64,000 nt of DNA from a virus, in UHGV virus genome UHGV-1366603. One strand, given 5' to 3'. The notes beneath the pieces are model-generated. The model saw nothing but the letters and a program-made list of their open reading frames with translations. It was not told the origin of the DNA and did no database searches. The position numbers and the translations under genes are program-made. This document shows positions 9,574 through 53,088 of this stretch, piece by piece (within the stretch, counting starts at the first letter, position 1; each line of letters starts with the position of its first letter).

Positions 9574-9604
9574 GGGGGCCCCTCATTCTAGGGGCGTGTA
9601 ATTG

Positions 9605-9616: not shown

Positions 9617-9632
9617 AAAGGAAATAAACGAA

Positions 9633-10943: not shown

Positions 10944-10962
10944 GGGGAACGACGTGTTCCCC
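10944..10962 (+). other. intergenic hairpin GGGGAAC-GACGTG-TTCCCC between paralogs (weak terminator/processing site)
   Basis: Stem-loop seen in sequence; no strong T-run. Confidence 0.3.
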
Positions 10963-10980
10963 TTAGAGGAAAAGCTTAAA

Positions 10981-12243
10981 ATGGCAAATTTCGCAAAAAC
11001 TCGCGCCGCTCGTGAATCGATGGAAGCTACTGCTACTGTAGTTCCAGACGGCATCGAACTGCCAGCAGAATCTGTTGAAGGTACTCTGGCCGATATCGAA
11101 CATGATACCAAACCGATCGAAGCCCTGGACGCTGACGCTGAACTGCTGGCCGAAGACGGCGACGAAACTGATGCTCAACTGGATGTCCTGGATGAAGCTC
11201 AGGCCGCTGCCGACGGTGAAGGTGCTGGTGAAGACGGCGAAGAGCCGATGGACGCTGAAGAAGATATGCCGGACGACGCAGCGACTGCGCTGGACGTTGC
11301 TCAGGAATCTATCCGTTCTCGTTGGAACTTCGAACACCGTTCTTCCGTTGCACACGAATCCTACGGTTCTCGTAACCGTCGCCAGGTTGCTCGTGAATCC
11401 CTGTGGGAAGACATTAAAGCATTCCTGAAACGTATCTGGGAATGGCTGAAAGAACAAGGCCGTAAGATCAAAGATCGTTGGCTGAAATTCTCCAACCAGG
11501 GTAAATCCATCCAGGCTCGTTCTAAGAAATACGACGATGCTATTCGTAAACTGGGCAAACAGAAGAAAGATGAAATCTCTGGTGGCTTCATCAAGTCTCT
11601 GTCTATCGACGGTAAATTCGTTGGCGACGATCTGTCGCGCCTGAAGAATATCCTGAACCACGTCTCCACCTACTACAGTGGTAACGTTCAGAGCTTCCTG
11701 AACAACGGTACGGATATGGTTGGTAACGTCGTTAAAGGCGATGGTGCTAAAGTTGAGAAACTGAAAGCAGACTTCGCTGCTCTGGCTAAAGAAGACGTTA
11801 GCAAGTTCAAACTTGGTAACATGGCTCTGAAGATGGAGTACGACGAAGAAGGCGGATTTAGCTCCAGCTATGTGGAAGCTGAAAACCGTGCTGAAACCAA
11901 CGTGAAAACTCCGTCTGTTAGCGAACTGGCTAAGACCAATGCCTTCTTCAACGAAGTGGGTAAACAGATCGAGAAGAACGTTCTGGAATATCGTAAGACT
12001 GAACAGGCTCGCGAGAAATTCAGCCAGCAGATTGAGAAGCTGCTGAAAGAAATCGACAGCGTGAAGATCGACGAAAAACCGCAACTGACCGAATCTGTAC
12101 GTACCGCACGTCGTTACATCAACAGCATTAACCAGGCAGTGTCTCTGGGCGAGAAAGTTATTTCCTCTACTCAGAAACATCTGGCTGGCGGTCTGAACGG
12201 CTATATCTCCGCAGGTATCGCTGCTTACGAAAAATCTAAATAA
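10981..12243 (+). CDS. abundant acidic-N-terminus protein, paralog B (420 aa)
   Basis: Start set at MANFAKTRAARESMEA (track ORF begins upstream at 10954); shared N- and C-terminal motifs with paralog A (…GLNGY…AGI.AY.KSK). Confidence 0.85.
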   Translation: MANFAKTRAARESMEATATVVPDGIELPAESVEGTLADIEHDTKPIEALDADAELLAEDGDETDAQLDVLDEAQAAADGEGAGEDGEEPMDAEEDMPDDAATALDVAQESIRSRWNFEHRSSVAHESYGSRNRRQVARESLWEDIKAFLKRIWEWLKEQGRKIKDRWLKFSNQGKSIQARSKKYDDAIRKLGKQKKDEISGGFIKSLSIDGKFVGDDLSRLKNILNHVSTYYSGNVQSFLNNGTDMVGNVVKGDGAKVEKLKADFAALAKEDVSKFKLGNMALKMEYDEEGGFSSSYVEAENRAETNVKTPSVSELAKTNAFFNEVGKQIEKNVLEYRKTEQAREKFSQQIEKLLKEIDSVKIDEKPQLTESVRTARRYINSINQAVSLGEKVISSTQKHLAGGLNGYISAGIAAYEKSK

Positions 12244-12260: not shown

Positions 12261-12308
12261 GGAGAACCACCCTGTAATGGGGTGGTTCTCCCTTTTCTTT
12301 TTTTTTTC
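12261..12308 (+). terminator. intrinsic terminator
   Basis: GGAGAACCACCC-TGTAAT-GGGGTGGTTCTCC hairpin followed by long T-run. Confidence 0.9.
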
Positions 12309-12322
12309 GCATTAAAAATAAT

Positions 12323-12352
12323 CTCAGATAGATATTACCTTAGTGAGATTAC
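12323..12352 (+). promoter_or_regulatory. promoter-like motif copy 1 (CTCAGATAGATATTACCTTAGTGAGATTAC)
   Basis: 30-mer identical to 47177-47206; lies after terminator and 46 nt upstream of ATG. Confidence 0.55.
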
Positions 12353-12398
12353 GCTGTAATCATTTAACGACCTGTTTATTACGTTTAGGAGAATTATC

Positions 12399-13040
12399 AT
12401 GACACGTTACAATTTAGCCGACTTCTGCGATTGTGCCTTTTCTGTTGAAGGTGACAAACTTGTAATGGCTGCGCCAAACGCAAGAGTTTTATCGTTGTAT
12501 CAAGCCGAAGTTATTGCAATTTCGATTTGGTTGGCAAGGGCTATAGACGGCGGCTGTAAGGACCTTGATAAAGAAGTGTTGAAAGTCGGTCGTCGTGAAT
12601 TTGTGTATAAAGCAGAAATCCAGAACCGTTTACCAAAGACCTTTTTAAGCAGCTTGCTTAAAGATGTCAACACCCCAGTTGTCAGCCGAACATTTGACGG
12701 GGTGAAATATTACTCTTTTGAAGATTCGCACGTTGCTATCTGTGAAGGTGAGAATAAGTTTTTTACGACCGTTATCTACTTTCGTATTGCTGAACCTACG
12801 AAAGAAGAACTGGTTTGCAATACTGCGAACGATGTGGCCGTGATGCGTATGGACGATATCACCAGTGAACTATCTGGATTAAATGACATACCGCGTATTG
12901 TGGAGCGAGTCTTGGAAGGAGACGATTACTTTAAGTTGCTTCCGCTGGTAGCAAGCGAAGAAACAGAACAGGAAAGCGCTTTCATTCAGGTTAACCTTAC
13001 CGCTGCACAGGCGGTGGATCGTTTCTTCGAAGCTTTATAA
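12399..13040 (+). CDS. hypothetical protein (213 aa)
   Basis: ORF with TAGGAGAAT RBS downstream of promoter-like motif. Confidence 0.8.
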   Translation: MTRYNLADFCDCAFSVEGDKLVMAAPNARVLSLYQAEVIAISIWLARAIDGGCKDLDKEVLKVGRREFVYKAEIQNRLPKTFLSSLLKDVNTPVVSRTFDGVKYYSFEDSHVAICEGENKFFTTVIYFRIAEPTKEELVCNTANDVAVMRMDDITSELSGLNDIPRIVERVLEGDDYFKLLPLVASEETEQESAFIQVNLTAAQAVDRFFEAL

Positions 13041-13044
13041 TCAG

Positions 13045-13074
13045 AATGCCCTCCGTAGAGGGCATTATTTTTTC
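13045..13074 (+). terminator. intrinsic terminator
   Basis: AATGCCCTC-CGTA-GAGGGCATT hairpin followed by T-run. Confidence 0.8.
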
Positions 13075-20457: not shown

Positions 20458-20577
20458 ACTCGTAAACGCGTCTTAGACGTTGTTTTACACCTTAAGACGA
20501 TTAATGGTGTTTAAAAAATAAAAGGTCGTCAGAATGCGATACAGCGCGTTTTAGAGGGTGTTTTAATTAAAATATTT

Positions 20578-20610
20578 TCAGATATATATTACTTAGGTGA
20601 GAGAATTACG
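20578..20610 (+). promoter_or_regulatory. promoter-like motif (TCAGATATATATTACTTAGGTGAGAGAATTACG)
   Basis: Variant of the 12323/47177 motif, contains TATATTAC and GTGAGA; 39 nt upstream of ATG 20650. Confidence 0.5.
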
Positions 20611-21668: not shown

Positions 21669-21713
21669 ACCCCTAATCCCGAAAAGGATTAGGGGTACAC
21701 TTTATTTATTTTC
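21669..21713 (+). terminator. intrinsic terminator
   Basis: CCCCTAATCC-CGAAAA-GGATTAGGGG then T-rich tail. Confidence 0.8.
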
Positions 21714-21737
21714 GCTCTTAAAAAAGGAAATTGTGTC

Positions 21738-21893
21738 ATGAAGAATGTTAATGCAATGCTTAACCAGTCATTTGTTAACCAACAGCGTTTTCAGGAACGC
21801 TTAGCACAACTTAAAACACAACACAGACCGCCACAACAAAGAGTGGTTAAGAGCAAGTTTGGCGAAATGGTTTTCGAAAGAAAATCTTTCTAA
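21738..21893 (+). CDS. small basic protein (51 aa), bracketed by two terminators; missing from ORF track
   Basis: ATG with AAGGAAA RBS; MKNVNAMLNQSFVNQQRFQERLAQLKTQHRPPQQRVVKSKFGEMVFERKSF. Confidence 0.45.
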   Translation: MKNVNAMLNQSFVNQQRFQERLAQLKTQHRPPQQRVVKSKFGEMVFERKSF

Positions 21894-21903
21894 TAACCGT
21901 TAA

Positions 21904-21930
21904 GGGGGTGTGACAGCACCCCCTTTTTTA
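21904..21930 (+). terminator. intrinsic terminator
   Basis: GGGGGTG-TGACAG-CACCCCC then TTTTTT. Confidence 0.8.
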
Positions 21931-22052
21931 CGCTTTAACTTTTCCAAAGAGAAGTTAAAGCAAGGTACGCTGCCACAACAGCGTACCTTTTACAACACCA
22001 TTACGTTTCCGTAATGGATTTCTTTAATCACCCTACAAAGAGGGCTTATACC

Positions 22053-22226
22053 ATGAACAATGGTTACTACTTTACTGACAAAATGCTTGCAGAACAGTAT
22101 GCAGCAAAAACCAATTTACAGCAACGTATCTACGAGTATAGTCAACTCGGCGTGAATAAACGATTAAAACCATCCACCAACCGTTTCACACAGATAATCA
22201 CTGAAAAAAGGAGCGAACGCTACTAA
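22053..22226 (+). CDS. small hypothetical protein (57 aa; track gives 22014 start)
   Basis: ORF ending before GGGGGTG…CACCCCC hairpin; start uncertain. Confidence 0.4.
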   Translation: MNNGYYFTDKMLAEQYAAKTNLQQRIYEYSQLGVNKRLKPSTNRFTQIITEKRSERY

Positions 22227-22234
22227 CTAATACA

Positions 22235-22254
22235 GGGGGTGCACTACCACCCCC
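22235..22254 (+). other. hairpin GGGGGTG-CACTAC-CACCCCC without T-run (same stem as terminator 21904)
   Basis: Read directly. Confidence 0.5.
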
Positions 22255-22361
22255 TACTTGGTTCAGTAGTTGACTTTCGTTCATAATTATTAGATGTCTT
22301 GTTTTTTTTTTGCTTTTCGGGACGCATAAGGGGTCGTAGGGGGAGCCGAAGCTCCCCAGAC

Positions 22362-24474: not shown

Positions 24475-26760
24475 ATGAAAGATACCCGAATCTCTAATTT
24501 AGAGAAACTCGTAGAAGCCGGTACTAGTCTGGCCCAAAACGTCATCGGCAACAACACCGCCAGCGAAATGTGGAATACGATTGTTGCAGGCGAGTCCGTA
24601 CGCAGCAACGCAAAAGTGTTTGGCGCTCTGCGTGACGAAGCATCACAGCACTATGCCAACGCTTTTGGTGGCAAGAAAATGTCTCATGCTGCGACTGTCG
24701 CCTCCGCAATGATTCTGGGCGCAGCTAACCACGGTAAAGACCTGCAAGAACGTGTTGCCCAGGAATACGCTAAGCCGGAATTCCACACCAAGTATAACCT
24801 GGATATTGGTATCCCTGGTGCGCAAGGTGGTGACTGGGGTCGTGAGCGCATGGTTGTTGCTCAGGAATACTACAGCAACAAAGACTACGACAAAAACCTG
24901 GGCCTGACCTGGACCCTGAACGTACGTGCTCTGGAAACTCAGTCCAAGTTTGCTGAAACACTGTTCCCGACCATTACCGTCGACACCAACGATGTTGGTA
25001 TTACCGTACGTACTAAAGTGACTACCGTTTCTCGCGGTATCATGAACGCGCTGCTGAGCAAAGACGTCGTTGAAGATCATCGTCGTCCGCTGCACAACGC
25101 ACTGACTGACCACACCGTTCTCCAGGACGAAGCGATCAACATCGTTCCTTACGTAATGGAAACCGGTGAAAACCAGGAATACTTCGTAAGCGAAGAACTG
25201 GTTCCGAACGAAACCGTTCGCCTGGGTCGTGTACCTCCGTATCCGACTAACTACCTGAGCTTTGCAAACGACACGCTGAACCTGTTCCAGCTGTCTGCGC
25301 ATCCGGGTATCGTTCAGGAAGGTTACGAAGAAACTGATGAAATCGCACCGGGTTGTGCTCTGGGCAGCCTGCTGATTTCTGTACGTAAACCGGCCGAAGA
25401 AGCGAAAGCGGGTAAATTCATCAAACTGCACGTTCGTGACATGCAGTTCGCAACCTTCCAGCGTCCTGCTGAAGGTGACGGCCGTGAACTGGTTCTGCAA
25501 TTCCGTCGTACCGCGTTCTCTCTGAATGCGAAAACCACTGACTGGAAAGGCGACGCTATTCCGGCTCTGCAAGCACTGGGCCAGAACTCCTACACCCTGC
25601 GCTACGTTATCACCATCACCATGTCCCTGTTCACCAGCGGCCAGTTCGGTGGTAAAGTAGACATTTCCGGCCACAAACTGGAAATCGAAGGTCTGTACGA
25701 TGCAACTGGTAACAAAGTTGATACCAAGTCTGGTACCGGTAAAGTTATCCTGGATGGCCTGAAACTTGAACTGATGGGCTGGCGCTTCGATGGTACTCGT
25801 ACCAACGAAAACCGTCGTACCCAGGGTCTTCTGCTTGACCCAATTTGGGAACAGGAAAACTACAAACTGCAATACGGTTCTCCGATTCTGACCAAGTCTC
25901 CGGTTGGTGTTGAATACGACGACACTGAACGTCTGGACGACCTGATCTCTGCGGTGAACATCCGTAACGAACAGCTGGCTATTACTCAGACGCTGTCTTA
26001 CACCGAAGCAGTACGTAACGCAGCCGCTGCGATGATCACTCCGTGGGACAAACCGGCTATCCGTGGTCTGGGCCGTCACTGGGTTGCTCCGTGGTTCAAA
26101 GAGTCTGACTACAAAGTCGATGAAGTTGTTCAGTCTCTGGATACCAAAGAAGCGCTGATCAACGCTCGTCAGGGTCTGTTGCAGCGTATCGGTAGCCAGG
26201 TAACTCAGGCTATCCAGGATTCTCGTTTCATTCCTGCACTGCGCCTGCTGACCGCTGATCCGGACATTCTGCCGAAAGTTATTATCGCAACTGACGAACC
26301 GACTGCATCTATGCTGCTGCTGGTTCAGGGCGACCAACGTCTGCTGGGCGACCGTTATGAATACGAAGTCGTTACCACCAACGATGACCGCTGGCGCATC
26401 TACAACGCAGCTGACGATTCCTGGACTCGTCGTCTGCAATGGTTCCTGAAAGTTCCGACTGCGGACGATGGTTCCTACTGCGTACTGAACTGGGGTAACC
26501 ACTTCTGGTCTCCGATCATGGTTACCAACATCAACATCCAGCGTAACGGTTCTACTTCTAAAGAACTGGCTGTACAGCCGCGTAACGCGCATATCTGCCA
26601 CTGCCCGATCACTGGTCTGATTTGGGTTAAAGGCATCACCAAACTGGTTGAAGAAAAACTGGCTTACAACGTTTCTGTAGAACAGAACGGCCAGAAACAA
26701 ACCGACGGTGGTGTAGCAGGTAATGTTGCTGGCGACGGTAAAGACAAAGCTGGTAAATAA
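24475..26760 (+). CDS. major virion structural protein (761 aa); candidate major capsid protein (alternatively tail sheath)
   Basis: Extreme host-optimised codon usage, strong terminator after it, 685-aa antisense shadow ORF; size matches phiKZ-type major capsid proteins (from memory). Confidence 0.85.
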   Translation: MKDTRISNLEKLVEAGTSLAQNVIGNNTASEMWNTIVAGESVRSNAKVFGALRDEASQHYANAFGGKKMSHAATVASAMILGAANHGKDLQERVAQEYAKPEFHTKYNLDIGIPGAQGGDWGRERMVVAQEYYSNKDYDKNLGLTWTLNVRALETQSKFAETLFPTITVDTNDVGITVRTKVTTVSRGIMNALLSKDVVEDHRRPLHNALTDHTVLQDEAINIVPYVMETGENQEYFVSEELVPNETVRLGRVPPYPTNYLSFANDTLNLFQLSAHPGIVQEGYEETDEIAPGCALGSLLISVRKPAEEAKAGKFIKLHVRDMQFATFQRPAEGDGRELVLQFRRTAFSLNAKTTDWKGDAIPALQALGQNSYTLRYVITITMSLFTSGQFGGKVDISGHKLEIEGLYDATGNKVDTKSGTGKVILDGLKLELMGWRFDGTRTNENRRTQGLLLDPIWEQENYKLQYGSPILTKSPVGVEYDDTERLDDLISAVNIRNEQLAITQTLSYTEAVRNAAAAMITPWDKPAIRGLGRHWVAPWFKESDYKVDEVVQSLDTKEALINARQGLLQRIGSQVTQAIQDSRFIPALRLLTADPDILPKVIIATDEPTASMLLLVQGDQRLLGDRYEYEVVTTNDDRWRIYNAADDSWTRRLQWFLKVPTADDGSYCVLNWGNHFWSPIMVTNINIQRNGSTSKELAVQPRNAHICHCPITGLIWVKGITKLVEEKLAYNVSVEQNGQKQTDGGVAGNVAGDGKDKAGK

Positions 26761-26816: not shown

Positions 26817-26831
26817 TTTCTATTATTTTTT

Positions 26832-26856
26832 GGATAGATATTATCAAAGGGAGACT
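26832..26856 (+). promoter_or_regulatory. promoter-like motif (GGATAGATATTATCAAAGGGAGACT)
   Basis: Resembles AGATAGATATTAC core of other copies; after terminator. Confidence 0.4.
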
Positions 26857-31693: not shown

Positions 31694-31727
31694 AGGAGAG
31701 CTTCGGCTCTCCTCCTTTATTTTTATT
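31694..31727 (+). terminator. intrinsic terminator (UUCG tetraloop)
   Basis: GGAGAGC-TTCG-GCTCTCC then T-rich tail. Confidence 0.8.
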
Positions 31728-39693: not shown

Positions 39694-39735
39694 CCAACCT
39701 CTACCTTCGGGTAGAGGTTTTCTTCTTTTTATTTT
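39694..39735 (+). terminator. intrinsic terminator (UUCG tetraloop)
   Basis: AACCTCTACC-TTCG-GGTAGAGGTT then T-rich tail. Confidence 0.85.
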
Positions 39736-42453: not shown

Positions 42454-42465
42454 TAGTAACGGTGG

Positions 42466-42506
42466 GTAGAGAGAGCTTTCGGGCTCTCTCTACTTTTCTT
42501 TTTTTT
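42466..42506 (+). terminator. intrinsic terminator
   Basis: GTAGAGAGAGC-TTTCGG-GCTCTCTCTAC followed by T-run. Confidence 0.9.
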
Positions 42507-45753: not shown

Positions 45754-45766
45754 AGAGGGTATTGTG

Positions 45767-46372
45767 ATGTCAGAGATGATTCTCGACTCATTACTGCTGA
45801 TTACGGTGGCGTATATCAACAAAACCGGTAAGCTACCAAAGCGTGGGGTGACGATTGAACGGGAGGGGTTTAAGCACCGCTACCCGTTAACGAAAGTTCT
45901 CGATTTGGCAGCGCGGTTAGCGAAGATGCGTAGACCGACGTCAGACGCAGCACCGAAGTACGTCTTAGTGGTACTCCAACGTGCGATTTCTGAAGTCCGT
46001 CGTGCGCGTCGTCGTGCCTCGTTTCGCTTTTATCCAAACTCTACGCAACAGGTTGTGGGGGTCTATAACGAAATGGTTGTTGATTTACGTGCCGAACGCT
46101 GTAACGTTACAGGACTTGCGTATAACCGCCTCAAACGCATTCTGGACGACTCAGACGCGTTTACCACACCGCAAGAAGGTCAAGCGGCTTTAGCGCTTCT
46201 ACGAGGCGCTGAGCTCGTTATTGTGGACACCGCAGTACAGGCCGCAAGAATGCAGCACTATCTTGCTAAGCAAGGGTTAGTTTTACTGTGTGTACCGTCT
46301 GCACAGACTGCTAATCTTACCGCACCGGAAACGTCAGAAGTGTGGAGTGGTCCGATTGTTGACCATCAATAA
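45767..46372 (+). CDS. hypothetical protein (201 aa)
   Basis: ATG after AGAGGG RBS (track GTG 45764). Confidence 0.7.
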   Translation: MSEMILDSLLLITVAYINKTGKLPKRGVTIEREGFKHRYPLTKVLDLAARLAKMRRPTSDAAPKYVLVVLQRAISEVRRARRRASFRFYPNSTQQVVGVYNEMVVDLRAERCNVTGLAYNRLKRILDDSDAFTTPQEGQAALALLRGAELVIVDTAVQAARMQHYLAKQGLVLLCVPSAQTANLTAPETSEVWSGPIVDHQ

Positions 46373-46379
46373 AACCTTA

Positions 46380-46416
46380 CCCCTACCTATCGGTAGGGGC
46401 GGGTTTCTTTTTTATC
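46380..46416 (+). terminator. intrinsic terminator
   Basis: CCCCTACC-TATCG-GGTAGGGG then T-run. Confidence 0.85.
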
Positions 46417-46510
46417 CTAAAATTTATTACAACCAATAGCTATTATGTGAACGCCGGTATGGAATAAAGAAGTATCGGTTTAAATTTTTGTGCGTAAAGG
46501 TAAAACGATA

Positions 46511-47134
46511 ATGCTTAAGACAGTGTCTATTGATGGCCCTGACTTTTCTGGGAAATCGACGTTGTGCAAAATGGTAAAAGGTATGCTGGAATCTGCGGGG
46601 TTAAAGGTCTGCATCCGTAATCACCCTACGACGGAGACCGAAGCGGGTATCCGCGCACGCAGTTTAGTCATTCAGTCCGCAGCAAAAGCAAAAATTGCCG
46701 AAGCGATGTGCGACGATTTCCTCCACACGTTAGACCATGTTGTTGACGATTACGATGTTGTTATTTTCGACAGGTTCTGTCCCTCTACAGTCGTTTACCA
46801 GGGTGTCGACGGTAAAGACGAAGTTTTCCGACGTAAGCTAACGCGTCATTTCCACGCACCAGATTTGTACGTTTGGACAGATGTGGATTACGACGGCGCA
46901 GTAGCACGCTTTAAGAAACGGGTAGAAGAACAAGGTAAGAATTGGGACGATGAGGTTCTTACCGTTAAGTATTTAAAAGACAACCAAAGTTGGGAAGCGT
47001 TACGTGACCACTACCGCTTCGCCCACCACATTCTCACTGAAGGCGGTTGTCTACACCATTTATTACCCGTGAAGCAAGACGACGATTACCGGTTAAAAGC
47101 GGCTGAAATCGTTGCTTGTATTTTAGAGAATTAA
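46511..47134 (+). CDS. tmk: thymidylate (dNMP) kinase-like P-loop kinase
   Basis: P-loop GPDFSGKST and DRF.PSTVVYQG matching E. coli Tmk DRH.LSTQAYQG (from memory); start set at ATG 46511 (track GTG 46490). Confidence 0.75.
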   Translation: MLKTVSIDGPDFSGKSTLCKMVKGMLESAGLKVCIRNHPTTETEAGIRARSLVIQSAAKAKIAEAMCDDFLHTLDHVVDDYDVVIFDRFCPSTVVYQGVDGKDEVFRRKLTRHFHAPDLYVWTDVDYDGAVARFKKRVEEQGKNWDDEVLTVKYLKDNQSWEALRDHYRFAHHILTEGGCLHHLLPVKQDDDYRLKAAEIVACILEN

Positions 47135-47141
47135 TCACATA

Positions 47142-47176
47142 CCCCTACCTTCGGGTAGGGGGTTATTTAATTTTTT
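47142..47176 (+). terminator. intrinsic terminator (UUCG tetraloop)
   Basis: CCCCTACC-TTCG-GGTAGGGG then T-run; same stem as terminator 46380. Confidence 0.85.
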
Positions 47177-47206
47177 CTCAGATAGATATTACCTTAGTGA
47201 GATTAC
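47177..47206 (+). promoter_or_regulatory. promoter-like motif copy 2 (CTCAGATAGATATTACCTTAGTGAGATTAC)
   Basis: Identical 30-mer to 12323-12352; same 46-nt spacing to ATG and similar leader. Confidence 0.55.
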
Positions 47207-47252
47207 ACAATAACCTCTTTACGACTTGTTCTACAGATTAGGATTAATTACC

Positions 47253-47612
47253 ATGACTTATAATCACAACTCTATTGTTTTAGCAAAACGTAAATTCGGT
47301 CTTCATCTTTCTTACGTGATTCGTCATTTGACAGCGAAAGACATTACACAGCGTGAACTTGCCCAGCTTGCGAAAGTTTCACAATCGGTTATTTCATCTA
47401 TTAAGAACGATCGTAGCGAACGCCTGAGTCTACCGATAATGATGAAGGTTGCTGATGCAGTTCGTCTGAAATACCAGATTACGTTTAATTCCATTAAAGG
47501 GCGTTGCTCAGTAACGGTTCACGTAGAGTCTGCGTTGGACTACGTTGCAAATACGTCCCTTAAACGTACCGCGAAGAATATTCGTTTTGTTACTAACAGC
47601 GCAACACACTAA
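47253..47612 (+). CDS. helix-turn-helix (XRE/Cro-like) DNA-binding protein (119 aa)
   Basis: HTH-like segment ITQRELAQLAKVSQSVISSIKN; ATG after TTAGGA RBS (track TTG 47226). Confidence 0.6.
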   Translation: MTYNHNSIVLAKRKFGLHLSYVIRHLTAKDITQRELAQLAKVSQSVISSIKNDRSERLSLPIMMKVADAVRLKYQITFNSIKGRCSVTVHVESALDYVANTSLKRTAKNIRFVTNSATH

Positions 47613-47633
47613 CCAACCTAAAGGAGTAATATC

Positions 47634-48317
47634 ATGGCACCGAGAACTAAGAAAACCGAAGTTAAAGAAACTGTAGAAAAGCCGACTGATAATAAGGAAG
47701 CGGAAGTTAAGCAGACTGGGCCTAACAAGAAACTTGTGCTTATGTCACCCGCCACAGAAATACACGGGGATAAAATCTTAAGTTACACTCCGCGCGCGAG
47801 TTTAACGATCGATATTTACCATTACCCGGTATTCGACCTGTACACGCTTGTCTGTCGACTCGACGATGAGATACTGGCAGTCGTTCCAGGTATCCACAAA
47901 GAAAAACTGCTTACGGGTTCAGTCATTAGCGAGATTTTCCTGCGCTTGATGTTTAAATCAGACGATAAGATGATCAGCCAGATTGCTAGTAAATTGACTG
48001 ACTTCTTTGTTGAGGCTTCAACGTGGTTAGGCTTTCACCCAACGGCTTATTTCGTTTTCGACACCAAAATGTTGTATGCTGAAATGGGCGATAGCGTTAA
48101 ATATCCTATCTTGCTTAATGAAGAAGTCGTTCCTTTTTCCCTTACCAGTCCTAACAAACATCTTCGCTTTCATCCGGCGTTAGAAAGCCTGATTGAATAC
48201 AATCGGTTGGAAAAATATTACGCTTATCATCGCATGTTCTTTGAACTTCTGCGTGATAAATTAAGAGGCAAAGTTCCAGATTCTAGTGCAGCATTCACTA
48301 GTTCTAAGCTTTGGTAG
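47634..48317 (+). CDS. hypothetical protein (227 aa)
   Basis: ORF with AAGGAG RBS. Confidence 0.75.
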   Translation: MAPRTKKTEVKETVEKPTDNKEAEVKQTGPNKKLVLMSPATEIHGDKILSYTPRASLTIDIYHYPVFDLYTLVCRLDDEILAVVPGIHKEKLLTGSVISEIFLRLMFKSDDKMISQIASKLTDFFVEASTWLGFHPTAYFVFDTKMLYAEMGDSVKYPILLNEEVVPFSLTSPNKHLRFHPALESLIEYNRLEKYYAYHRMFFELLRDKLRGKVPDSSAAFTSSKLW

Positions 48318-48330
48318 TTTGTAACAAACA

Positions 48331-48358
48331 GGGAGCTTCGGCTCCCTTTTTCTTTTTA
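48331..48358 (+). terminator. intrinsic terminator (UUCG tetraloop)
   Basis: GGGAGC-TTCG-GCTCCC followed by T-run. Confidence 0.85.
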
Positions 48359-48403
48359 CAACTTTTTCTTTTGTTGTGAGGAAAGCCGATAAGGAGTATT
48401 AAA

Positions 48404-49390
48404 ATGGTATATCGTAAAACGATAGAAAGAACCTCTTCTGATTTAACCGTAGGACGCTTAACCCGTAGAGATATTCGCAATCCTCAACTTCAGGCATGTT
48501 TAACGGGCCCTAACGGTGCGGTGATTCGTGAAGCACTGTGCAATACTGAGCTGAATACGTTCTCTTTACAAAAAGGAAAAACAATCCAAGGGTTTATCAT
48601 CACAAAACACATTTACGGTGATCCAACGTTACACTGCTTGTATATGCATGAAATTGTACCTGGGTGTTTGAACAAACTGAGCCTTCTATTGGTACTTGAC
48701 TATACTGGGTTTACGTACCTTAACCGAATTGCCAGGGGCGTGGAAGAAATCGCTGAGCTTAACGATTTAGGGTTTAGACATACCCACACAGCATATCGTT
48801 TAGGTACGCGTAAGCTACTGGATGTCACTTTACCGACGAACGTGAAGAACGTCTCCGGCGACTTCTATAAAGACTTAACCAGAGCACAACGTGAACAGCT
48901 CATGACGTTGTTTGGCACTAGCGTCGTTGAAAACATCAATGCTGACCCTGTAACGCGTTCTCGACAAATAATGCCGCAAGTTGAAACATTGGTGGAATTA
49001 GCGCGGCACGTCAATCACTACACTTACGTTTGGATGGACGGTAATGACGTTGTGGGTGTGGTGCAAGTTAAATCACGCAATCTTAGCGAGTGCGAACTAA
49101 AAGCCATTGCGGTAAGTGAATCACACCGGGGCCGTGGGATTGGGCGTGCGTTGTTGTACCGTGCTTTACAGATTGCTTCGACAACAGCAGCACCGTTAGA
49201 AATAGGCTGTTACAATAACAACCCAGCATTTAGACACCTGGCTGTAGATTTGTTTAAATTCCGTCCCTACGAGTACGAATTTGTTTTAGTGCGCGACGAC
49301 GATGTCGTCAGTTGGGAGCGTCGGAAAAACCGCGTCGAGTTAGTGTTAGGCGACGAAATGTCATCGTTACAAGGCGGAATTAATGCATAA
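48404..49390 (+). CDS. GNAT-domain protein (328 aa), C-terminal acetyltransferase domain, possibly tandem GNAT
   Basis: C-terminal AIAVSESHRGRGIGRALLYRALQ GNAT motif; AAGGAG RBS. Confidence 0.65.
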   Translation: MVYRKTIERTSSDLTVGRLTRRDIRNPQLQACLTGPNGAVIREALCNTELNTFSLQKGKTIQGFIITKHIYGDPTLHCLYMHEIVPGCLNKLSLLLVLDYTGFTYLNRIARGVEEIAELNDLGFRHTHTAYRLGTRKLLDVTLPTNVKNVSGDFYKDLTRAQREQLMTLFGTSVVENINADPVTRSRQIMPQVETLVELARHVNHYTYVWMDGNDVVGVVQVKSRNLSECELKAIAVSESHRGRGIGRALLYRALQIASTTAAPLEIGCYNNNPAFRHLAVDLFKFRPYEYEFVLVRDDDVVSWERRKNRVELVLGDEMSSLQGGINA

Positions 49391-50198
49391 ACCAATTATA
49401 AAGTGGATGGGTGGTAAATCACGGATTATCGACACCTTACTACAAGTCTTACCTGAACGTACAACATTCGTTGAACCGTTTGTTGGTGCAGGGTCGGTGT
49501 TTTTGAACACACGTTATAAACGTTACATTCTTGCTGACTCTAACCCCGATTTAATACAGTTGCTGAATGTGGCGAAAGACCAACCTGAAGAACTTATCTT
49601 AAAGTCGAAACCACTATTCGAAGACGGTAACGATTGTATTAAGTATATGGAACGCCGTGAGTTGTTTAATCGCGAAACGGATATGGCTCCGTTAGACCGG
49701 GCAGCAATGTTTCTGTACTTAATGCGTCACGGTTTTAACGGGATGTGTCGTTACAACGGCAGCGGGGGTTTTAACGTTCCGTTTGGTCGCTATCCTAACG
49801 GTGTGTATTACCCGTTAGACGAGATTCGTGGTTGGGCTAAACGTTGTCAAGAACCGGAATACTTAGAAATTGTTTGTGAAGATTTCCGAACAGTTTTAGA
49901 GCGTACACCGGAAGAGAGTGTGATTTACGCAGACCCGCCTTATATACCGCTCTCAGAGACCGCTAAACACGCCCAATACCATCGGAAGGAGTTTTCCCAG
50001 GCTGACCATCGAGAACTCGCCAGAGCGCTGTTTAAGCAGGTTGAGAGGGGGAATAGCGTTGTGTTGTCCAATGCAGATACGTTACTAACGCGTGAGATTT
50101 ATTACGGGTTCGAATGGCGTTCTGTGGAAGTAGGGCGATACATGGGTGCGTCAGGTGCTGCCCGTAAAACGGTAACGGAATTGTTAGGAGTGCTCTAA
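49383..50198 (+). CDS. dam: DNA adenine methyltransferase (Dam, GATC N6-adenine MTase)
   Basis: IKWMGGKSR, VEPFVGAGSVFLNT, YILADSNPDLI, FNGMCRYNG.GGFNVPFGRY, DPPYIPLS, all matching E. coli Dam from memory. Confidence 0.9.
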   Translation: MHKPIIKWMGGKSRIIDTLLQVLPERTTFVEPFVGAGSVFLNTRYKRYILADSNPDLIQLLNVAKDQPEELILKSKPLFEDGNDCIKYMERRELFNRETDMAPLDRAAMFLYLMRHGFNGMCRYNGSGGFNVPFGRYPNGVYYPLDEIRGWAKRCQEPEYLEIVCEDFRTVLERTPEESVIYADPPYIPLSETAKHAQYHRKEFSQADHRELARALFKQVERGNSVVLSNADTLLTREIYYGFEWRSVEVGRYMGASGAARKTVTELLGVL

Positions 50199-50971
50199 TG
50201 CGTATAGTGGATATCCACGATTATCGTAATGACCATTTAGCGATTGGTGTCGATGGGAAAATGGTTTCGTTAACCCGCGTACGCAAAGGGTTAATGGAAA
50301 AGGAGATCATTCGGGAGTCCGAAGACCCTACCTTTATCATCCTTTCGAACACTAATCAGTTACAGGGCATCTTTTCAGGGCGTGCTGACGGTAAGATTTT
50401 CTATATGTCCGCAATCGTTGTGTTTGCGAAGAAGAACATTAACTTCGCCCAACTCAAACGTTTGTTAAACGTGAAGATGTTTGATGTCACCTACCCTGCT
50501 AATGACCTAAAACGTCGTGATCAGTTAATGACGTTTTTAGGTATGCAACCAACGTCTATCGATTACGACCTTACGATTACTGAGAAGCCGGAAGTGCGCA
50601 CTGACTTACCTGACGTAGACGATGTTGAATCCTTAACGTTAGAAGAGACGTTTACGATTCCTAAGGTTGTTAATGTCAACCTGGACACGCATTGTTTAGG
50701 GTTGTTAGCCGTAGGTGCAGCAGAAGGGTTGTGTTGTCGTAAAGACGGTAAGGTTGAAGGTATCTTAGTCTATTCGAAAATCAACGAAAAGACGTTTGCC
50801 ACTGAAGGCTTTTTCTATAACGATTGCACTTACGGAAACGCACTACTAACCACGTATTTCCGTATTGCTTATCTGAAAGGCGCAACTGTACGCCTCACGT
50901 TTCCATACACAGCCCCACCGTCTATGGGTGGAGTTGAGGTAGAACCATTAACCGGCCACTTTATCTTTTAA
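50198..50971 (+). CDS. hypothetical protein (257 aa)
   Basis: TAATG coupling to Dam. Confidence 0.75.
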   Translation: MRIVDIHDYRNDHLAIGVDGKMVSLTRVRKGLMEKEIIRESEDPTFIILSNTNQLQGIFSGRADGKIFYMSAIVVFAKKNINFAQLKRLLNVKMFDVTYPANDLKRRDQLMTFLGMQPTSIDYDLTITEKPEVRTDLPDVDDVESLTLEETFTIPKVVNVNLDTHCLGLLAVGAAEGLCCRKDGKVEGILVYSKINEKTFATEGFFYNDCTYGNALLTTYFRIAYLKGATVRLTFPYTAPPSMGGVEVEPLTGHFIF

Positions 50972-50980
50972 GGATGATGA

Positions 50981-51208
50981 ATGGAAATCAAACGTATTGT
51001 AACCAAAAACAAACAGATTGTTTACGTCGCAGGCGATAACGAATTCTCGGCGGTAATCAACAGCGAAAATGCGCTCATTATCGGTTATCCGGGTAAAGTT
51101 ATTACGCGCAGTCACCAACGTGTGATTGACAAACTTATCGCAAAAGCGAAAGCGCGTGACGGTGTTGGTTCAGTACAAACCCACACGGGGTTAACGCTGG
51201 CCCTCTAG
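50981..51208 (+). CDS. hypothetical protein (75 aa)
   Basis: ORF with AAGGA RBS. Confidence 0.6.
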   Translation: MEIKRIVTKNKQIVYVAGDNEFSAVINSENALIIGYPGKVITRSHQRVIDKLIAKAKARDGVGSVQTHTGLTLAL

Positions 51209-51247
51209 TCAGCAGGTAATATGACCTCTTAACTGGAGACTTTAATA

Positions 51248-51754
51248 ATGAGTGAGACTCTGGATTTTAATCAGCTCGAACAACACGATTTCGACCTCGG
51301 TGTTCGTGATATCGATGCTGATCATGAAACACGTTGTAAAGAGCTGTTTAACCGTTACGGTCAGCTCATCACCGGTGCCTCTGACGACACCGAATTCAGT
51401 TTAGATGAGTTTGAAAAAGTTCTGTCGTGTTTTATCACTGACTGTCTGGCGAAGAAAGCGTTGCTGGTCGAACTGAACTTAGACTCCGTCGAACCTACTG
51501 ATGCTCACGCCGTGTTGAAAGAGTCCATTATCCCAACTGATGAGATTATGGACACGGTAGCCGGTATTCGCGGTACGTTTGAAACTGCCGTAGAAGAATA
51601 CACGGAACAGCTTCGTGAATCAGGACTGACGTTGTGTGCGCCAGCAGGTGAGCCATTACCGTCCGACGAAGAAACTGAAGAAGCGCGTAGTCGCTTAGCG
51701 CGTTATGTTATTACGTCTATCTTGGTAGATGATCGCGAAGAGAATCTGCTATAA
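51248..51754 (+). CDS. strongly acidic protein (168 aa), candidate DNA mimic
   Basis: GGAGACTT RBS; very high Asp/Glu content. Confidence 0.7.
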   Translation: MSETLDFNQLEQHDFDLGVRDIDADHETRCKELFNRYGQLITGASDDTEFSLDEFEKVLSCFITDCLAKKALLVELNLDSVEPTDAHAVLKESIIPTDEIMDTVAGIRGTFETAVEEYTEQLRESGLTLCAPAGEPLPSDEETEEARSRLARYVITSILVDDREENLL

Positions 51755-51757
51755 GCT

Positions 51758-51797
51758 GCCCCTCTCTCCGTTTGGAGAGAGGGTGTATTTATTTTTA
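51758..51797 (+). terminator. intrinsic terminator
   Basis: GCCCCTCTCTCC-GTTT-GGAGAGAGGG then T-rich tail. Confidence 0.85.
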
Positions 51798-51852
51798 CGC
51801 GTATAGCCGTAGTTATGCACAAGTAAACAAAATTAATTGAGGAAACAATCTG

Positions 51853-52170
51853 ATGTGGTTAAGTGCTATTCACCGTGATTTGCCAAAACGTGACGTGTCG
51901 TTTACTGTTGAGGACGCACCGATTGAGGTAGGCGTCGCTAAATTCGAAAGAATCGAAGAAGGGCAGTTTGTTGTAATGGATGGCAACGACAACGAATTTA
52001 TGTTGTATCATCCAGAAGTGGATACCTCTGAAATTTGTGACGGTGTTCTTTTGTTGTCCTGGCAAAACCAAGAAACTAAAGAATGGATGTGGTGTGTTGC
52101 TAAACCGACAAATGAAGCTGGAACCGCATACGTGTTTGGGGAAATTTATGTCGAACCCGAGCCACACTAA
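51853..52170 (+). CDS. hypothetical protein (105 aa)
   Basis: ORF with GAGGA RBS. Confidence 0.7.
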   Translation: MWLSAIHRDLPKRDVSFTVEDAPIEVGVAKFERIEEGQFVVMDGNDNEFMLYHPEVDTSEICDGVLLLSWQNQETKEWMWCVAKPTNEAGTAYVFGEIYVEPEPH

Positions 52171-52217
52171 TTTCGATATAGCTTCAGCATTGTGTTGTTA
52201 ATGGTCTAAAAAATTTA

Positions 52218-52248
52218 AGATATATTTCATCTATGTGAGAATTCTCAC
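52218..52248 (+). promoter_or_regulatory. promoter-like element with perfect 14-bp palindrome GTGAGAATTCTCAC (52235-52248)
   Basis: AGATATAT… then TGTGAGAATTCTCAC; 24 nt upstream of ATG 52272. Confidence 0.45.
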
Positions 52249-52271
52249 TTAACTAAATGGAGTAATCTAAA

Positions 52272-52541
52272 ATGGCTAAGATTTACATTGTTGAGAAACG
52301 TGCGGGTAATGTTCTTTCCTATTACGAAGAAGGTAAACCTGAAAAAGTTAAAACACTCAAACTCGACGGGTATGAAGTGAAGAGTTTACGCAAAGGTGTG
52401 AAGATTACCTTTAAAGGTTTGGCTCGCGTAAATAACTTACACATTGTTAAGGCCGATGGTACGATGGCTGCGTTAGCGCCTGTCAGTGCTGCGAAAACGA
52501 CAGCCGGTCGTGGCTGCTACGGTAGCAGTCGTAAGATTTAA
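52272..52541 (+). CDS. small basic protein (89 aa), monocistronic unit
   Basis: TGGAG RBS; promoter-like element before and terminator after. Confidence 0.7.
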   Translation: MAKIYIVEKRAGNVLSYYEEGKPEKVKTLKLDGYEVKSLRKGVKITFKGLARVNNLHIVKADGTMAALAPVSAAKTTAGRGCYGSSRKI

Positions 52542-52546
52542 GCAGT

Positions 52547-52588
52547 GCCCCTCTCTCCTAACGGAGAGAGGGTACTTTTATTTTTCTT
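52547..52588 (+). terminator. intrinsic terminator
   Basis: GCCCCTCTCTCC-TAAC-GGAGAGAGGG then T-rich tail; stem identical to terminator 51758. Confidence 0.85.
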
Positions 52589-52599
52589 CGAGGTGCGTG

Positions 52600-53088
52600 A
52601 TGACAACGGTATTAGTAACAAAGGATTACATTTTAGCTGACCGACTTGTGGACTATGCTGGCACAGTTAAAGAATTGCCCAAACTACATAAACACAAAAA
52701 CAAGTTTGTTTTCTACACTGGGGAACGTGTACTGGACACCGAGTTTTGGAAAATATCAATGACCGCTGTTATAGAAAAATATTTAGACGTGGATAAACGC
52801 AAGGAAGTTGAGCCTTTGCTTGTGGATTTTTTCGAAAAAGAGCGAATATTCGATCAGATTGTCATTTTTACGGCTAGAAAAACTCATTGGCTCACATTAG
52901 TAGCAGGTAAGTTTGAAGATCTTGTAATAAATGAAAATGCGGTTTGGGCAACGGGTTCTGGTGGAGGTTTTGCACGGGCTGCTTGGGCGACAGGAATATC
53001 AGAAAAGAAAATTATGCCGTTGGTAGGTTCTATTGATCCGTCTAGCTCGACCACCTATGACTTGTTTTACAGGAAGAGTTTACGATGA
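52600..53088 (+). CDS. HslV/proteasome-beta-like Ntn-hydrolase peptidase candidate (162 aa)
   Basis: Start set at ATG after GAGGTG RBS (track ORF 52486 runs through the terminator); N-terminus MTT…; ENAVWATGSGGGFARAAWATG resembles HslV [21 protein letters not shown]. Confidence 0.5.
   Translation: MTTVLVTKDYILADRLVDYAGTVKELPKLHKHKNKFVFYTGERVLDTEFWKISMTAVIEKYLDVDKRKEVEPLLVDFFEKERIFDQIVIFTARKTHWLTLVAGKFEDLVINENAVWATGSGGGFARAAWATGISEKKIMPLVGSIDPSSSTTYDLFYRKSLR

Follow-up and report, generated by a model that had tools for sequence, protein, structure and literature searches.

Look-alike terminator hairpins in an undescribed jumbo phage related to SPN3US and phiEaH2

Genes and hairpins of the window

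The region of interest carries a thymidylate kinase gene and, further downstream, two small genes, each set enclosed by two hairpins with identical stems (Table 1), and it lies within a 64,000-nt stretch of UHGV virus genome UHGV-1366603 that we refer to as the window. The window belongs to an undescribed SPN3US/phiEaH2-like jumbo phage. Its major capsid protein is ~80% identical to that of phiEaH2/Asesino and ~78% identical to that of SPN3US, a megablast search of INPHARED with the window returned no match, and IMG/VR holds four relatives that are 80-98% identical to it. The phage falls in the phiKZ-like lineage, whose members are transcribed by their own multisubunit RNA polymerases. Our outgroup set comprises eight phages from four genera (SPN3US, phiEaH2 and six more).

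Table 1. Hairpins, genes and neighbouring features discussed in the text
Feature	Position	Strand	Remarks
Terminator GGAGAACCACCC..., then after 31 nt promoter-like motif TCTCAGATAGATATTAC	12261..12338	+	composite junction
Hyperplastic tandem array	21700..22260	+	small paralogous ORFs 21738-21893 and 22054-22226
GGGGGTG/CACCCCC hairpins	21902-21925, 22232-22257	+	stems at 21904 and 22235; one ends each array ORF
GGGAGC-TTCG-GCTCCC hairpin	22341..22356	-	third such copy; just 3' of minus-strand helicase gene
Terminator AGGAGAGC-TTCG-GCTCTCCT	31694..31713	+	GGAGAGC TTCG at 31694; -14.3 kcal/mol
Terminator AACCTCTACC-TTCG-GGTAGAGGTT	39696..39719	+	'variant' member; -16.2 kcal/mol; identical in four relatives
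Terminator GGGTAGAGAGAGC-TTTCGG-GCTCTCTCTACTT	42464..42495	+	'related' member; GTAGAGAGAGC at 42466; -23.1 kcal/mol
Terminator T1, ACCCCTACC-TATC-GGTAGGGG, then T-tract	46379..46412	+	-17.6 kcal/mol; 7 nt past stop of ORF 45764-46372
T1 stem-loop CCCCTACC/GGTAGGGG	46380-46399	+	loop TATC
Thymidylate kinase gene	46511..47134	+	between the two CCCCTACC terminators; annotation of SPN3US and phiEaH2 orthologues
Terminator T2, ACCCCTACC-TTCG-GGTAGGGGG, then T-tract	47141..47174	+	-16.7 kcal/mol
T2 stem-loop CCCCTACC/GGTAGGGG	47142-47161	+	loop TTCG
Promoter-like motif TCTCAGATAGATATTAC	47176..47192	+	15 nt past T2
Terminator AGGGAGC-TTCG-GCTCCCT, then T-tract	48330..48347	+	GGGAGC TTCG at 48331; -13.0 kcal/mol
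Terminator T4, TGCCCCTCTCTCC-GTTT-GGAGAGAGGGT, then TTTATTTTT	51757..51796	+	-22.6 kcal/mol; repeat family D12
T4 stem-loop CCCTCTCTCC/GGAGAGAGGG	51760-51783	+	loop GTTT
Two small genes, 105-aa and 89-aa ORFs	51853..52541 (51853-52170, 52272-52541)	+	inside CCCTCTCTCC pair; ancestral in outgroups
Terminator T5, TGCCCCTCTCTCC-TAAC-GGAGAGAGGGT, then TTTTATTTTT	52546..52585	+	-22.8 kcal/mol
T5 stem-loop CCCTCTCTCC/GGAGAGAGGG	52549-52572	+	loop TAAC
Recombinant patch	52638..53058	+	begins 66 nt past T5

All of the hairpins named in the initial annotation are present where it placed them, and its observation that UUCG loops predominate holds, with TTCG-containing loops forming the commonest class (~11 of 24 hairpins). 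RNA folding of ten hairpins gave -13 to -23 kcal/mol. Among the 16 plus-strand hairpins whose distance from the preceding stop codon was measured, one begins 64 nt past it and the others 3-17 nt past it. T-tracts follow on the 3' side, on the same strand as the gene that precedes the hairpin, minus-strand genes included; the hairpin at 22341..22356 has no T-tract next to it. By this anatomy, and by analogy with experiments on phiKZ and 201phi2-1, the hairpins would be ordinary hairpin-plus-U-tract (intrinsic-type) terminators. Hairpins with cUUCGg tetraloops were reportedly described in intercistronic regions of phage T4 by Tuerk et al. 1988. They resemble those of the window in that the extra-stable C(UUCG)G cap is the most frequent loop class among intergenic terminators, but that work is said to concern loop stability and not the reuse of whole stems.

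Across the clade, terminators follow a common design: a C/T-rich 5' arm that begins (A)CCC and ends CC, most often a UUCG loop, a G/A-rich 3' arm and, 1-3 bases further on, TTTTATTTT. A single genome contains numerous distinct stems of both the pyrimidine-first and the purine-first class. At orthologous sites the stems differ yet pair perfectly. For example, site 42464 reads TAGGAGAGAACC/GGTTCTCTCCTG in clade B, with several changes each compensated on the opposite arm, the 39696 orthologue in IMG/VR contig 3300031418_000005 is CCTCTCTCC-ACAT, and at sites 31399 and 47142 the stem is replaced outright between genomes. Stems are better conserved than the flanking coding sequence. Near-identical genomes also differ by exact loop inversions, at site 2616 (TTTTCG vs CGAAAA; TCCG vs CGGA) and at site 13045 (CGTA vs TACG).

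Template-switch (quasi-palindrome correction) mutations create and maintain hairpins by a mechanism described for rRNA genes (PMC8794818), and loop inversions of this kind are its signature. The perfect stems, multi-base compensated changes and loop inversions of the window and its relatives (sites 2616, 13045 and 42464) resemble its products, although for phage terminators it is sequence patterns only that point to this process. Intra-hairpin template switching probably contributes to the perfect stems and would also account for the loop inversions, and perfect pairing would be kept by selection for termination.

Stem sharing relative to chance

Stem identity among GC-rich hairpins might be no greater than expected, and this possibility was named at the outset as grounds for discarding the idea of reuse. 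Sharing was above chance in every null model. For the 5' arms, the number of pairs with at least 8 nt in common was three, compared with 0.21 expected from arm shuffles (P=0.001), 0.37 under a Markov model (P=0.017) and 0.44 under a position-specific model (P=0.017). Spacing is 330-790 nt in all three pairs, and in two of them no other terminator lies between the members (P ~0.02). The looser members (CCTCTACC, GTAGAGAGAGC, and GGAGAGC vs GGGAGC) show a family resemblance that alone is not above chance. Exact stems are indeed shared, but their exact reuse is local in the window and not genome-wide as first proposed.

Within SPN3US, five arm pairs of at least 10 nt were found vs 0.04-0.09 expected, and this excess stands under the position-specific null (P<0.001). 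The identical SPN3US stems lie dispersed over 18-160 kb and are not adjacent, and therefore local copying is not a general rule. Furthermore, the window and non-orthologous SPN3US terminators share nine arms vs 1.5 expected, identical 10-nt arms among them. The recurrence of the arm excess in this comparison shows that much of the resemblance is a clade-wide terminator design.

We think it probable that a shared template, local copying and possible convergence together make the terminator stems alike. The first of these is shown, in that this phage group builds its terminators to one template. Such design constraints leave a small sequence space, so that stems recur even between genera. Taken to its limit, a tiny design space, in which the ends are C-rich and 3-5 positions in the middle vary, could yield coincident stems by convergence with no copying. 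The arms are strongly position-biased, the 10-nt identities with SPN3US involve non-orthologous sites, many phages, unrelated ones included, contain CCCCTACC-N4-GGTAGGGG (95 IMG/VR stretches), and stems at different sites can be 1-2 compensated steps apart (for example, CCTCTACC vs CCTCTCTCC at the 39696 site). However, the excess over the position-specific null in both the window and SPN3US, the spacing of all three window pairs (<800 nt), the loop and base flanks shared within the CCCTCTCTCC pair (28 nt in g078609), the rarity of its stem in IMG/VR and the location of the GGGGGTG pair inside an evident tandem duplication make it unlikely that convergence accounts for everything.

Another view is that particular stems are needed by the phage RNA polymerases, by a termination/antitermination factor or by an RNA-binding protein, and that selection, not copying, keeps them identical. 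In SPN3US the CCCTCTTACC-TTCG hairpin occurs three times in identical form between dissimilar flanks, and stem conservation exceeding that of flanking coding sequence would also fit. We are doubtful of this view given the many different stems in one genome, pyrimidine-first and purine-first alike, and the outright stem replacements at orthologous sites. Moreover, 201phi2-1 terminators work in uninfected Pseudomonas too, and thus a phage-specific reader is not needed.

Three IMG/VR contigs of 309-325 kb each contain multiple copies of the exact CCCCTACC-TTCG hairpin followed by a CTTTATGCCGT tail. Identical hairpins dispersed among dissimilar flanking genes, as seen in these giant contigs and in SPN3US, might be copies of a self-spreading REP-like or MITE-like repeat. 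This origin is extremely improbable, because conserved ends and target-site duplications are absent, the hairpins sit 3-17 nt past stop codons at sites that are orthologous across genera, their orientation follows the direction of transcription, and searches with the hairpins gave no Rfam or repeat-family match.

Origins of the three pairs

In the tandem array, each ORF is trailed by the same multi-hairpin intergenic cassette of ~100 nt, which holds two further hairpins. The copy number and content of the array vary among five close genomes, and all four relatives differ. The GGGGGTG pair therefore goes back to a duplication in which a small gene and the terminator cassette behind it were repeated in tandem.

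The CCCTCTCTCC pair consists of T4 and T5. In the eight outgroups, from four genera, the T4 and T5 stems are unlike each other: the T4 site has CCTCCTTGCC and other stems, and the orthologous T5 site is of the CCCTACC type in 8 of 8. In the window and its four relatives, both sites carry CCCTCTCTCC (5 of 5 genomes; T4 is kept in 4 of 4 relatives), and at least five stem variants occur at the two sites across 13 genomes. In the window, the two copies are identical over TGCCCCTCTCTCC 5' of the loop and over GGAGAGAGGGT 3' of it; in relative g078609 the copies share 28 identical nt, TGCCCCTCTCTCCGTTTGGAGAGAGGGT. Three relatives have GTTT as the T5 loop, and the fourth has TAGC. The stem is rare, being present in 10 IMG/VR stretches and, in the relatives, only at the T4 and T5 sites. 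The pair thus appears best explained by copying between neighbouring, originally different terminators. Specifically, two terminators ~790 nt apart would have been made identical, likely by short-patch gene conversion or by template switching during replication, the hairpins having outer stems and T-tracts in common. Gene conversion is suggested by the pattern alone, from which the donor-recipient tract is not delimitable.

For the CCCCTACC pair, copying of the kind proposed for CCCTCTCTCC is one possible origin; convergence is another, because the stem is common in phages. The T1 stem is kept at the orthologous site in 4 of 4 relatives with loops TATC, TCAC or TAAC, and in these relatives the enclosed thymidylate kinase shows 89-99% amino-acid identity. 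At the T2 site, clade B relatives have an unrelated stem (GGTACCACC-CAAC-GGTGGTACC) and outgroups have CCCCTCTTACC or CCCCTCTTGCC. The loops of the window pair differ from each other.

No more than one or two small genes lie inside each pair, and close relatives differ in whether a further gene-plus-terminator unit separates T1 from the thymidylate kinase gene. The enclosed genes might accordingly have arrived as moron- or PeSL-like mobile cassettes that duplicated a target terminator on both sides. However, thymidylate kinase and the 105-aa and 89-aa ORFs are syntenic in the eight outgroups, where the flanking terminators are unlike, so the genes are older than the terminator identity and the repeats are not insertion footprints; we judge this origin very unlikely. 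The variable unit itself resembles lambdoid morons (Juhala/Hendrix; PMC2839356), in which some relatives have, and others lack, a gene plus a terminator of its own between two neighbouring genes. An SPN3US gp167-like gene is found in g078609 and g029126 and is missing from the window, and such a unit leaves the identical stems unexplained.

Known terminator families and mosaic boundaries

The look-alike pattern is already known from related giant phages. In phiKZ, ONT-cappable-seq revealed a conserved motif, BCCYCCCCHWWDGGGRRGGBYTTATKYYGT, in 61 terminators (PMC10914365), and the same method found terminator motifs in 201phi2-1, the commonest in 59 terminators (PMC11512511). These giant phages belong to the same broad lineage, and the likeness extends to one template (C-rich 5' arm, short loop, G-rich 3' arm and TTAT-containing tail) and to near-identical copies scattered in the genome. 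Even with up to three mismatches allowed, the window contains no match to the literal phiKZ consensus. The window stems, which fall into pyrimidine-first and purine-first classes, show greater length and variety, their exact identity is confined to neighbouring pairs, and they are known from sequence alone.

It had also been suggested that a promoter motif is reused together with the hairpins. The TCTCAGATAGATATTAC promoter-like motif has four matches vs 0.14 expected, and its T2-side copy lies in a 66-nt repeat common to 12311-12376 (family D3, 80% identity). Joint reuse is not borne out, as the identity of the CCCCTACC and CCCTCTCTCC pairs ends a few bases beyond the hairpin, with the motif outside. 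The arrangement recalls the promoter-early stem-loop (PeSL) cassettes of T4-like phages (PMC2839356, PMC4122927), which likewise combine an intergenic terminator hairpin with a repeated promoter, are repeated around small variable genes, and have junctions at which replacements and indels between close relatives start or stop. In contrast, the promoter-like motif of the window, TTTCAGATAGATATTAC, is not sigma-70-like and occurs at only ~4 of ~23 terminators, and identity in the two main pairs covers the hairpin alone and not a ~100 bp cassette. We reject membership of the window cassettes in the T4 PeSL family and retain a resemblance only.

The proposal that intergenic cassettes are duplicated or recombined stands in part: the GGGGGTG duplication, the probable CCCTCTCTCC copying and the clustering of recombination boundaries agree with it, but the genes flanking the CCCCTACC and CCCTCTCTCC pairs are not paralogues. 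A breakpoint comparison among related phages, which had been recommended as a check, placed 12 of 28 mosaic patch boundaries within 112 nt of a terminator, where 2.5 were expected (P=2e-6), and the boundaries cluster at terminator and promoter junctions. Such enrichment is partly expected, because viable crossovers must hit gene boundaries, where terminators sit. Allele exchanges tend to start or stop at these junctions because the junctions are conserved islands amid variable genes. The gene at 12399-13040 is replaced in three relatives between the 12261 junction and terminator 13045, and in clade B the gene upstream of the 48330 terminator is replaced, with homology restarting exactly at the start of the hairpin. 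At 52488-52637, a conserved island separates two divergent patches, and the recombinant patch that follows T5 shares ~91% identity with clade B g113438 but ~71% with the relatives that are closest to the window elsewhere.

Identical stems in neighbouring terminators

The sharing of stems between terminators in this window is real and non-random, yet it falls within known biology. Among 22 strong hairpins, three pairs have 5' arms with at least 8 nt in common, against 0.21 pairs expected on shuffling within arms (P 0.001), 0.37 under a first-order Markov model (P 0.017) and 0.44 under a position-specific model with C-rich arm base and top (P 0.017). The members of these pairs are separated by only 330-790 nt, and two of the three pairs are direct neighbours in terminator order (P ~0.02). 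Because the observed pairs exceed the expected number in all three null models and their members lie close together, we do not attribute the identity to the chance likeness of GC-rich hairpins, which the initial annotation had named as the outcome that would overturn its reading.

Every hairpin named in that annotation was found in place, and the exact pairs within its proposed stem families stand (see table). The CCCCTACC stem is identical over its whole length at T1 and T2, the terminators around the thymidylate kinase gene. The same is true of CCCTCTCTCC at T4 and T5, which enclose two small genes, and here the identity also takes in the flanking TGCC (5') and T (3'). The third pair, (A)GGGGGTG, has one small ORF between its hairpins. 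The looser members (CCTCTACC, GTAGAGAGAGC, and GGAGAGC compared with GGGAGC) show family resemblance only.

By PHROG profiles and tblastn, the window is assigned to a jumbo myovirus of the SPN3US/phiEaH2 group, with a major head protein ~80% identical to those of phiEaH2 and Asesino and ~78% identical to that of SPN3US. A megablast search of 46000-53000 against INPHARED (50,697 GenBank phage records) gave no match, blastn against SPN3US-like phages gave only ~68% identity, and the lineage is known from IMG/VR contigs only. Loci from four such contigs were joined into ~60-kb counterparts of the window. Two belong with the window to clade A (3300045988_095954 and 3300045988_078609, hereafter g095954 and g078609; 93-98% identical) and two form clade B (3300045988_113438 and 3300029126_000001, the latter g029126; ~80-88% identical). 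The full genome of SPN3US was also assembled and its 60 strong hairpins catalogued.

The strongest case for copying is the CCCTCTCTCC pair. This stem occupies both sites in all five genomes; three carry GTTT in both loops, and in g078609 the two copies have 28 identical nt in common. The flanking genes are syntenic in SPN3US, SPAsTU, MET_P1, phiEaH2, Asesino, ChrisDB, pSal-SNUABM-04 and Kwan, and in these eight outgroups the two sites are unlike each other. The upstream site carries (A/G/T)CCTCCTTGCC in Seoulvirus and Erskinevirus and other stems elsewhere, and all eight have a CCCTACC-type stem at the downstream site. A CCTCTCTCC-N4-GGAGAGAGG stem occurs in only 10 IMG/VR stretches and, in the relatives, is confined to the T4 and T5 sites; no third 'donor' copy of CCTCTCTCC was found elsewhere in the relatives' genomes. 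The simplest reading of these comparisons is that T4 and T5, ~790 nt apart, descend from two different terminators that became homogenised in this lineage's ancestor. Copying between T4 and T5 is well supported, with its polarity given by parsimony on an unrooted comparison. Gene conversion or template switching, acting through the common CCCT...AGGG outer stem and the T-tract, may have been the mechanism.

For the CCCCTACC pair, we judge copying and convergence to be about equally probable because its two loops are not alike and its stem is widespread elsewhere. T1 is the same in every one of the five genomes apart from a single C-to-T wobble change that clade B carries. At T2, clade A has CCCCTACC-TTCG, clade B has the unrelated GGTACCACC-CAAC, and SPN3US and phiEaH2 have CCCCTCTTACC or CCCCTCTTGCC. 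Judged from these stems, the clade A version looks like the ancestral stem minus 3 nt per arm, a shortening that could reflect conversion from T1 or slippage in one arm, with the opposite arm then corrected to match. The stem is a common solution in phages: the exact CCCCTACC-N4-GGTAGGGG hairpin is present in 95 IMG/VR stretches and, with a CTTTATGCCGT tail, is multi-copy in three contigs of 309-325 kb.

Tandem gene duplication was rejected for both the CCCCTACC and CCCTCTCTCC pairs because the flanking genes are not paralogous. Likewise, insertion of a cassette that duplicated the terminators was rejected on the synteny of the enclosed genes across the eight outgroups. A mobile palindrome of the REP/MITE type, expected to have conserved ends or target duplications and to insert at non-orthologous sites, is likewise not indicated: the dispersed identical hairpins lack flank similarity, and hairpin positions are orthologous across genera.

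Duplication of cassettes, as the initial annotation had proposed, is directly visible around the GGGGGTG pair, where a gene and its terminator have been duplicated together. In this region, small paralogous ORFs (51-57 aa) that show a common pattern stand in tandem, each followed by a ~100-nt repeated cassette containing three hairpins: GGGG(G)TG, the invariant GCTTTAACTTTTCnAAAGAGAAGTTAAAGC, and one whose CTG-N6-CAG top is conserved and whose lower stem covaries. The number and identity of the array units are different in all four relatives.

Features of the window discussed in the text
Feature	Position	Observation
Loop-inversion site	2616-2643	Loops TTTTCG/CGAAAA and TCCG/CGGA
Internal-head-protein genes	9633-10904; 10954-12243	Adjacent paralogues
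Divergent patch	11625-12165	Relative to g078609
Terminator-promoter junction	12261-12338	
66-nt repeat/leader	12311-12376; 47165-47230	80% identical
TTTCAGATAGATATTAC motif	12322-12338; 20576-20592; 26828-26844; 47176-47192	
First replaced gene	12399-13040	
Loop-inversion site	13045-13066	Loops CGTA/TACG
Small-ORF array	21700-22260	
(A)GGGGGTG hairpins	21904; 22234	Third exact pair
Hairpins without T-tract	22232-22257; 22341-22356	
Major head protein	24475-26760	
Replaced stems	31399; 47142	
Compensated site	42464-42495	Loop inversion plus one substitution
T1	46379..46412 (+)	CCCCTACC stem at 46380
Alternative segment	46432-46489	Contains TATTATGTGAAC
T2	47141..47174 (+)	CCCCTACC stem at 47142
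Second replaced gene	47634-48317	
Hairpin after second replaced gene	48330	
T4	51757..51796 (+)	CCCTCTCTCC stem at 51760
T5	52546..52585 (+)	CCCTCTCTCC stem at 52549
Possible loop inversion in T5	52549-52572	Relative to relatives
Gene past T5	52600-53088	
Recombinant patch	52638-53058	

Terminator anatomy and design

The hairpins have loops of 3-8 nt and stems of 7-14 bp, and RNA folding of ten of them gave -13 to -23 kcal/mol (z-scores -2.2 to -6.1). A T-tract (5 or more T in 8 nt) lies 0-3 nt past the stem and shares its strand with the upstream gene, for plus- and minus-strand genes alike. The distance from stop codon to hairpin is 3-17 nt in 15 of the 16 plus-strand hairpins measured and 64 nt in the other. 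Loops containing TTCG are the largest class (~11 of 24 hairpins), in agreement with the predominance initially described. Four properties of intrinsic terminators are thus present, namely a G+C-rich hairpin, a 3' U-rich tract, a post-coding position and compensatory change. By anatomy we regard these elements as intrinsic-type terminators, and we infer termination itself from phiKZ and 201phi2-1. Two hairpins have no adjacent T-tract on either strand and, because of this, may not be simple intrinsic terminators; both are stable hairpins at the convergent junction of the small-ORF array and a minus-strand helicase gene. An Rfam gathering scan over the whole window yielded no match.

In phiKZ, the consensus BCCYCCCCHWWDGGGRRGGBYTTATKYYGT is common to 61 terminators (PMC10914365), and 201phi2-1 has recurrent terminator motifs, the most frequent in 59 terminators (PMC11512511). 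The terminators of the window repeatedly show the same C-rich 5' arm, G-rich 3' arm and TTAT-containing tail. The literal phiKZ string has no match in the window with up to 3 mismatches allowed, and therefore the resemblance is one of design and not of sequence membership. Approximately half of the arms are pyrimidine-first, beginning with (A)CCC and ending with CC; a G/A-rich arm and then a TTTTATTTT-type tail come after them, and this design with its tail is present in SPN3US too. Each of the three 309-325 kb IMG/VR contigs holds at least 5 copies of CATAAAG-CCCCTACC-TTCG-GGTAGGGG-CTTTATGCCGT, in which AT-rich flanks lengthen the stem and the tail fits the YTTATKYYGT portion of the phiKZ consensus.

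Stem reuse extends across the clade. The 60 SPN3US hairpins include 5 pairs with at least 10 nt of arm in common, against 0.04-0.09 expected (P<0.001), with members 18-160 kb apart, and the window shares 9 arms with non-orthologous sites of SPN3US, against 1.5 expected. Three identical SPN3US hairpins, CCCTCTTACC-TTCG-GGTAAGAGGG (67345, 94154 and 180981), are spread over 114 kb with nothing in common outside the hairpin. Since none of 10 pairs of identical stems in SPN3US are adjacent, local copying is specific to the lineage of the window and no general rule. SPN3US also carries, at 137590 and 186744, two oppositely oriented hairpins whose 11-bp stem and 5-nt loop are identical.

Stem change and loop inversion

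When the five genomes are compared site by site, most orthologous stems prove identical, including those beside genes of ~80% identity, and the loops are variable. Where stems do change, pairing is retained: clades A and B differ at site 42464 by several changes, each compensated on the opposite arm, the stem is wholly replaced between genomes at two sites, and relatives and outgroups have differing yet perfectly paired stems at orthologous positions. At sites 2616 and 13045 the loops of close genomes are reverse-complementary, and site 42464 shows a similar flip. Template-switch mutations create and maintain hairpins, and exact loop inversion is their signature (PMC8794818). The flips seen here are as would be expected from template switching or from recombination within an inverted repeat, and template switching would offer a route for copying a change in one arm into the opposite arm. 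The loop of T5 might represent a further inversion.

Promoter linkage and mosaic exchange at terminator junctions

The promoter-like motif TTTCAGATAGATATTAC is present in four copies in the window against 0.14 expected; three sit 15-31 nt past a terminator, and most terminators are without it. It is probably a promoter for a phage polymerase. Two copies fall within a 66-nt repeat or leader, and the motif is found in intergenic regions of SPN3US and phiEaH2 as well. The initial annotation had allowed that the promoter might be included in the repeated unit, but in the CCCCTACC and CCCTCTCTCC pairs the identity stops short of it, and past the hairpins the copies can be aligned over short motifs and the T-tract only. 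A second promoter-like pattern that follows some terminators, TTAC-N14-17-TGTGA, is not above chance (5 against 3.15 expected), and a sigma-70 consensus scan returned fewer sites than in shuffled sequence.

By analogy, the system may work somewhat like the PeSL cassettes of T4 (PMC2839356, PMC4122927), with variable small genes between repeats and with replacements and indels that map to junctions. Junction-bounded replacements in the window affect two genes and the small-ORF array. PeSL repeats are also known to recombine into mini-circles. In contrast to PeSL, which has a sigma-70-like early promoter within ~100 bp, the window motif is not sigma-70-like, and because this defining feature fails we do not file the system as a PeSL member.

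Two-state segmentation of the identity between the window and clade A gave 14 divergent or unalignable patches. Recombination breakpoints, which the initial annotation had suggested seeking at these cassettes, do concentrate there: of the 28 patch boundaries, 12 are found no more than 112 nt from a terminator, where 2.5 would be expected (P=2e-6). This is an association and not proof of causation, because any viable crossover has to coincide with a gene boundary. At the level of patches, 8 of 14 have a boundary near a terminator (P=8e-4). The first replaced gene is exchanged between the terminator-promoter junction and terminator 13045. The second is replaced in clade B, with homology restarting at the first base of the hairpin that follows. 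Homology to g078609 stops 32 nt past T1, where g078609 and g029126 have an additional gene that ends in a GGGGTG terminator of its own. In g095954, a 150-nt conserved island containing T5 has a divergent patch on each side. The patch that begins just past T5 is ~91% identical to clade B 3300045988_113438 and ~71% identical to clade A.

This patch, an allele of the gene past T5, is a clear inter-lineage recombinant. The extra gene between T1 and the thymidylate kinase gene (L007/L008, ~9100-9990) is an orthologue of SPN3US gp167, carried by one genome of each clade and missing from the rest. In its place the window has a 60-nt segment, such that alternative cassettes have identical flanks.

We regard these elements as intrinsic-type terminators built on a phiKZ-like giant-phage template, to which local duplication and homogenisation have been added, and placed at the seams of mosaic exchange. 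We also offer, as a speculation that we consider rather unlikely, that SPN3US/phiKZ-type junctions are PeSL-like linkers for phage-encoded RNA polymerases, whose neighbouring hairpins evolve in concert through short-patch conversion or template switching and thereby stay competent for recombination, and that these conserved islands serve as preferred crossover points for allele and cassette exchange between co-infecting giant phages. An uncultured SPN3US-like jumbo lineage shares the terminator template mapped experimentally in phiKZ and 201phi2-1, which should make transcription units in genomes of this kind easier to annotate. Beyond this, the gain is modest: a clean case of neighbouring terminators turned identical after ancestral difference, loops that have often flipped between genomes otherwise nearly the same, and mosaic patches whose edges gather at terminator junctions. 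Should these patterns prove general, recombination in giant phages would both produce regulatory hairpins and be mediated by them, with relevance to module exchange and to the engineering of such phages.

Elsewhere in the window, the two internal-head-protein genes are 98% identical over 49 nt at their 5' ends and 77% identical at their 3' ends, which suggests gene conversion between these tandem paralogues. The second of them overlaps a patch that is divergent relative to g078609.
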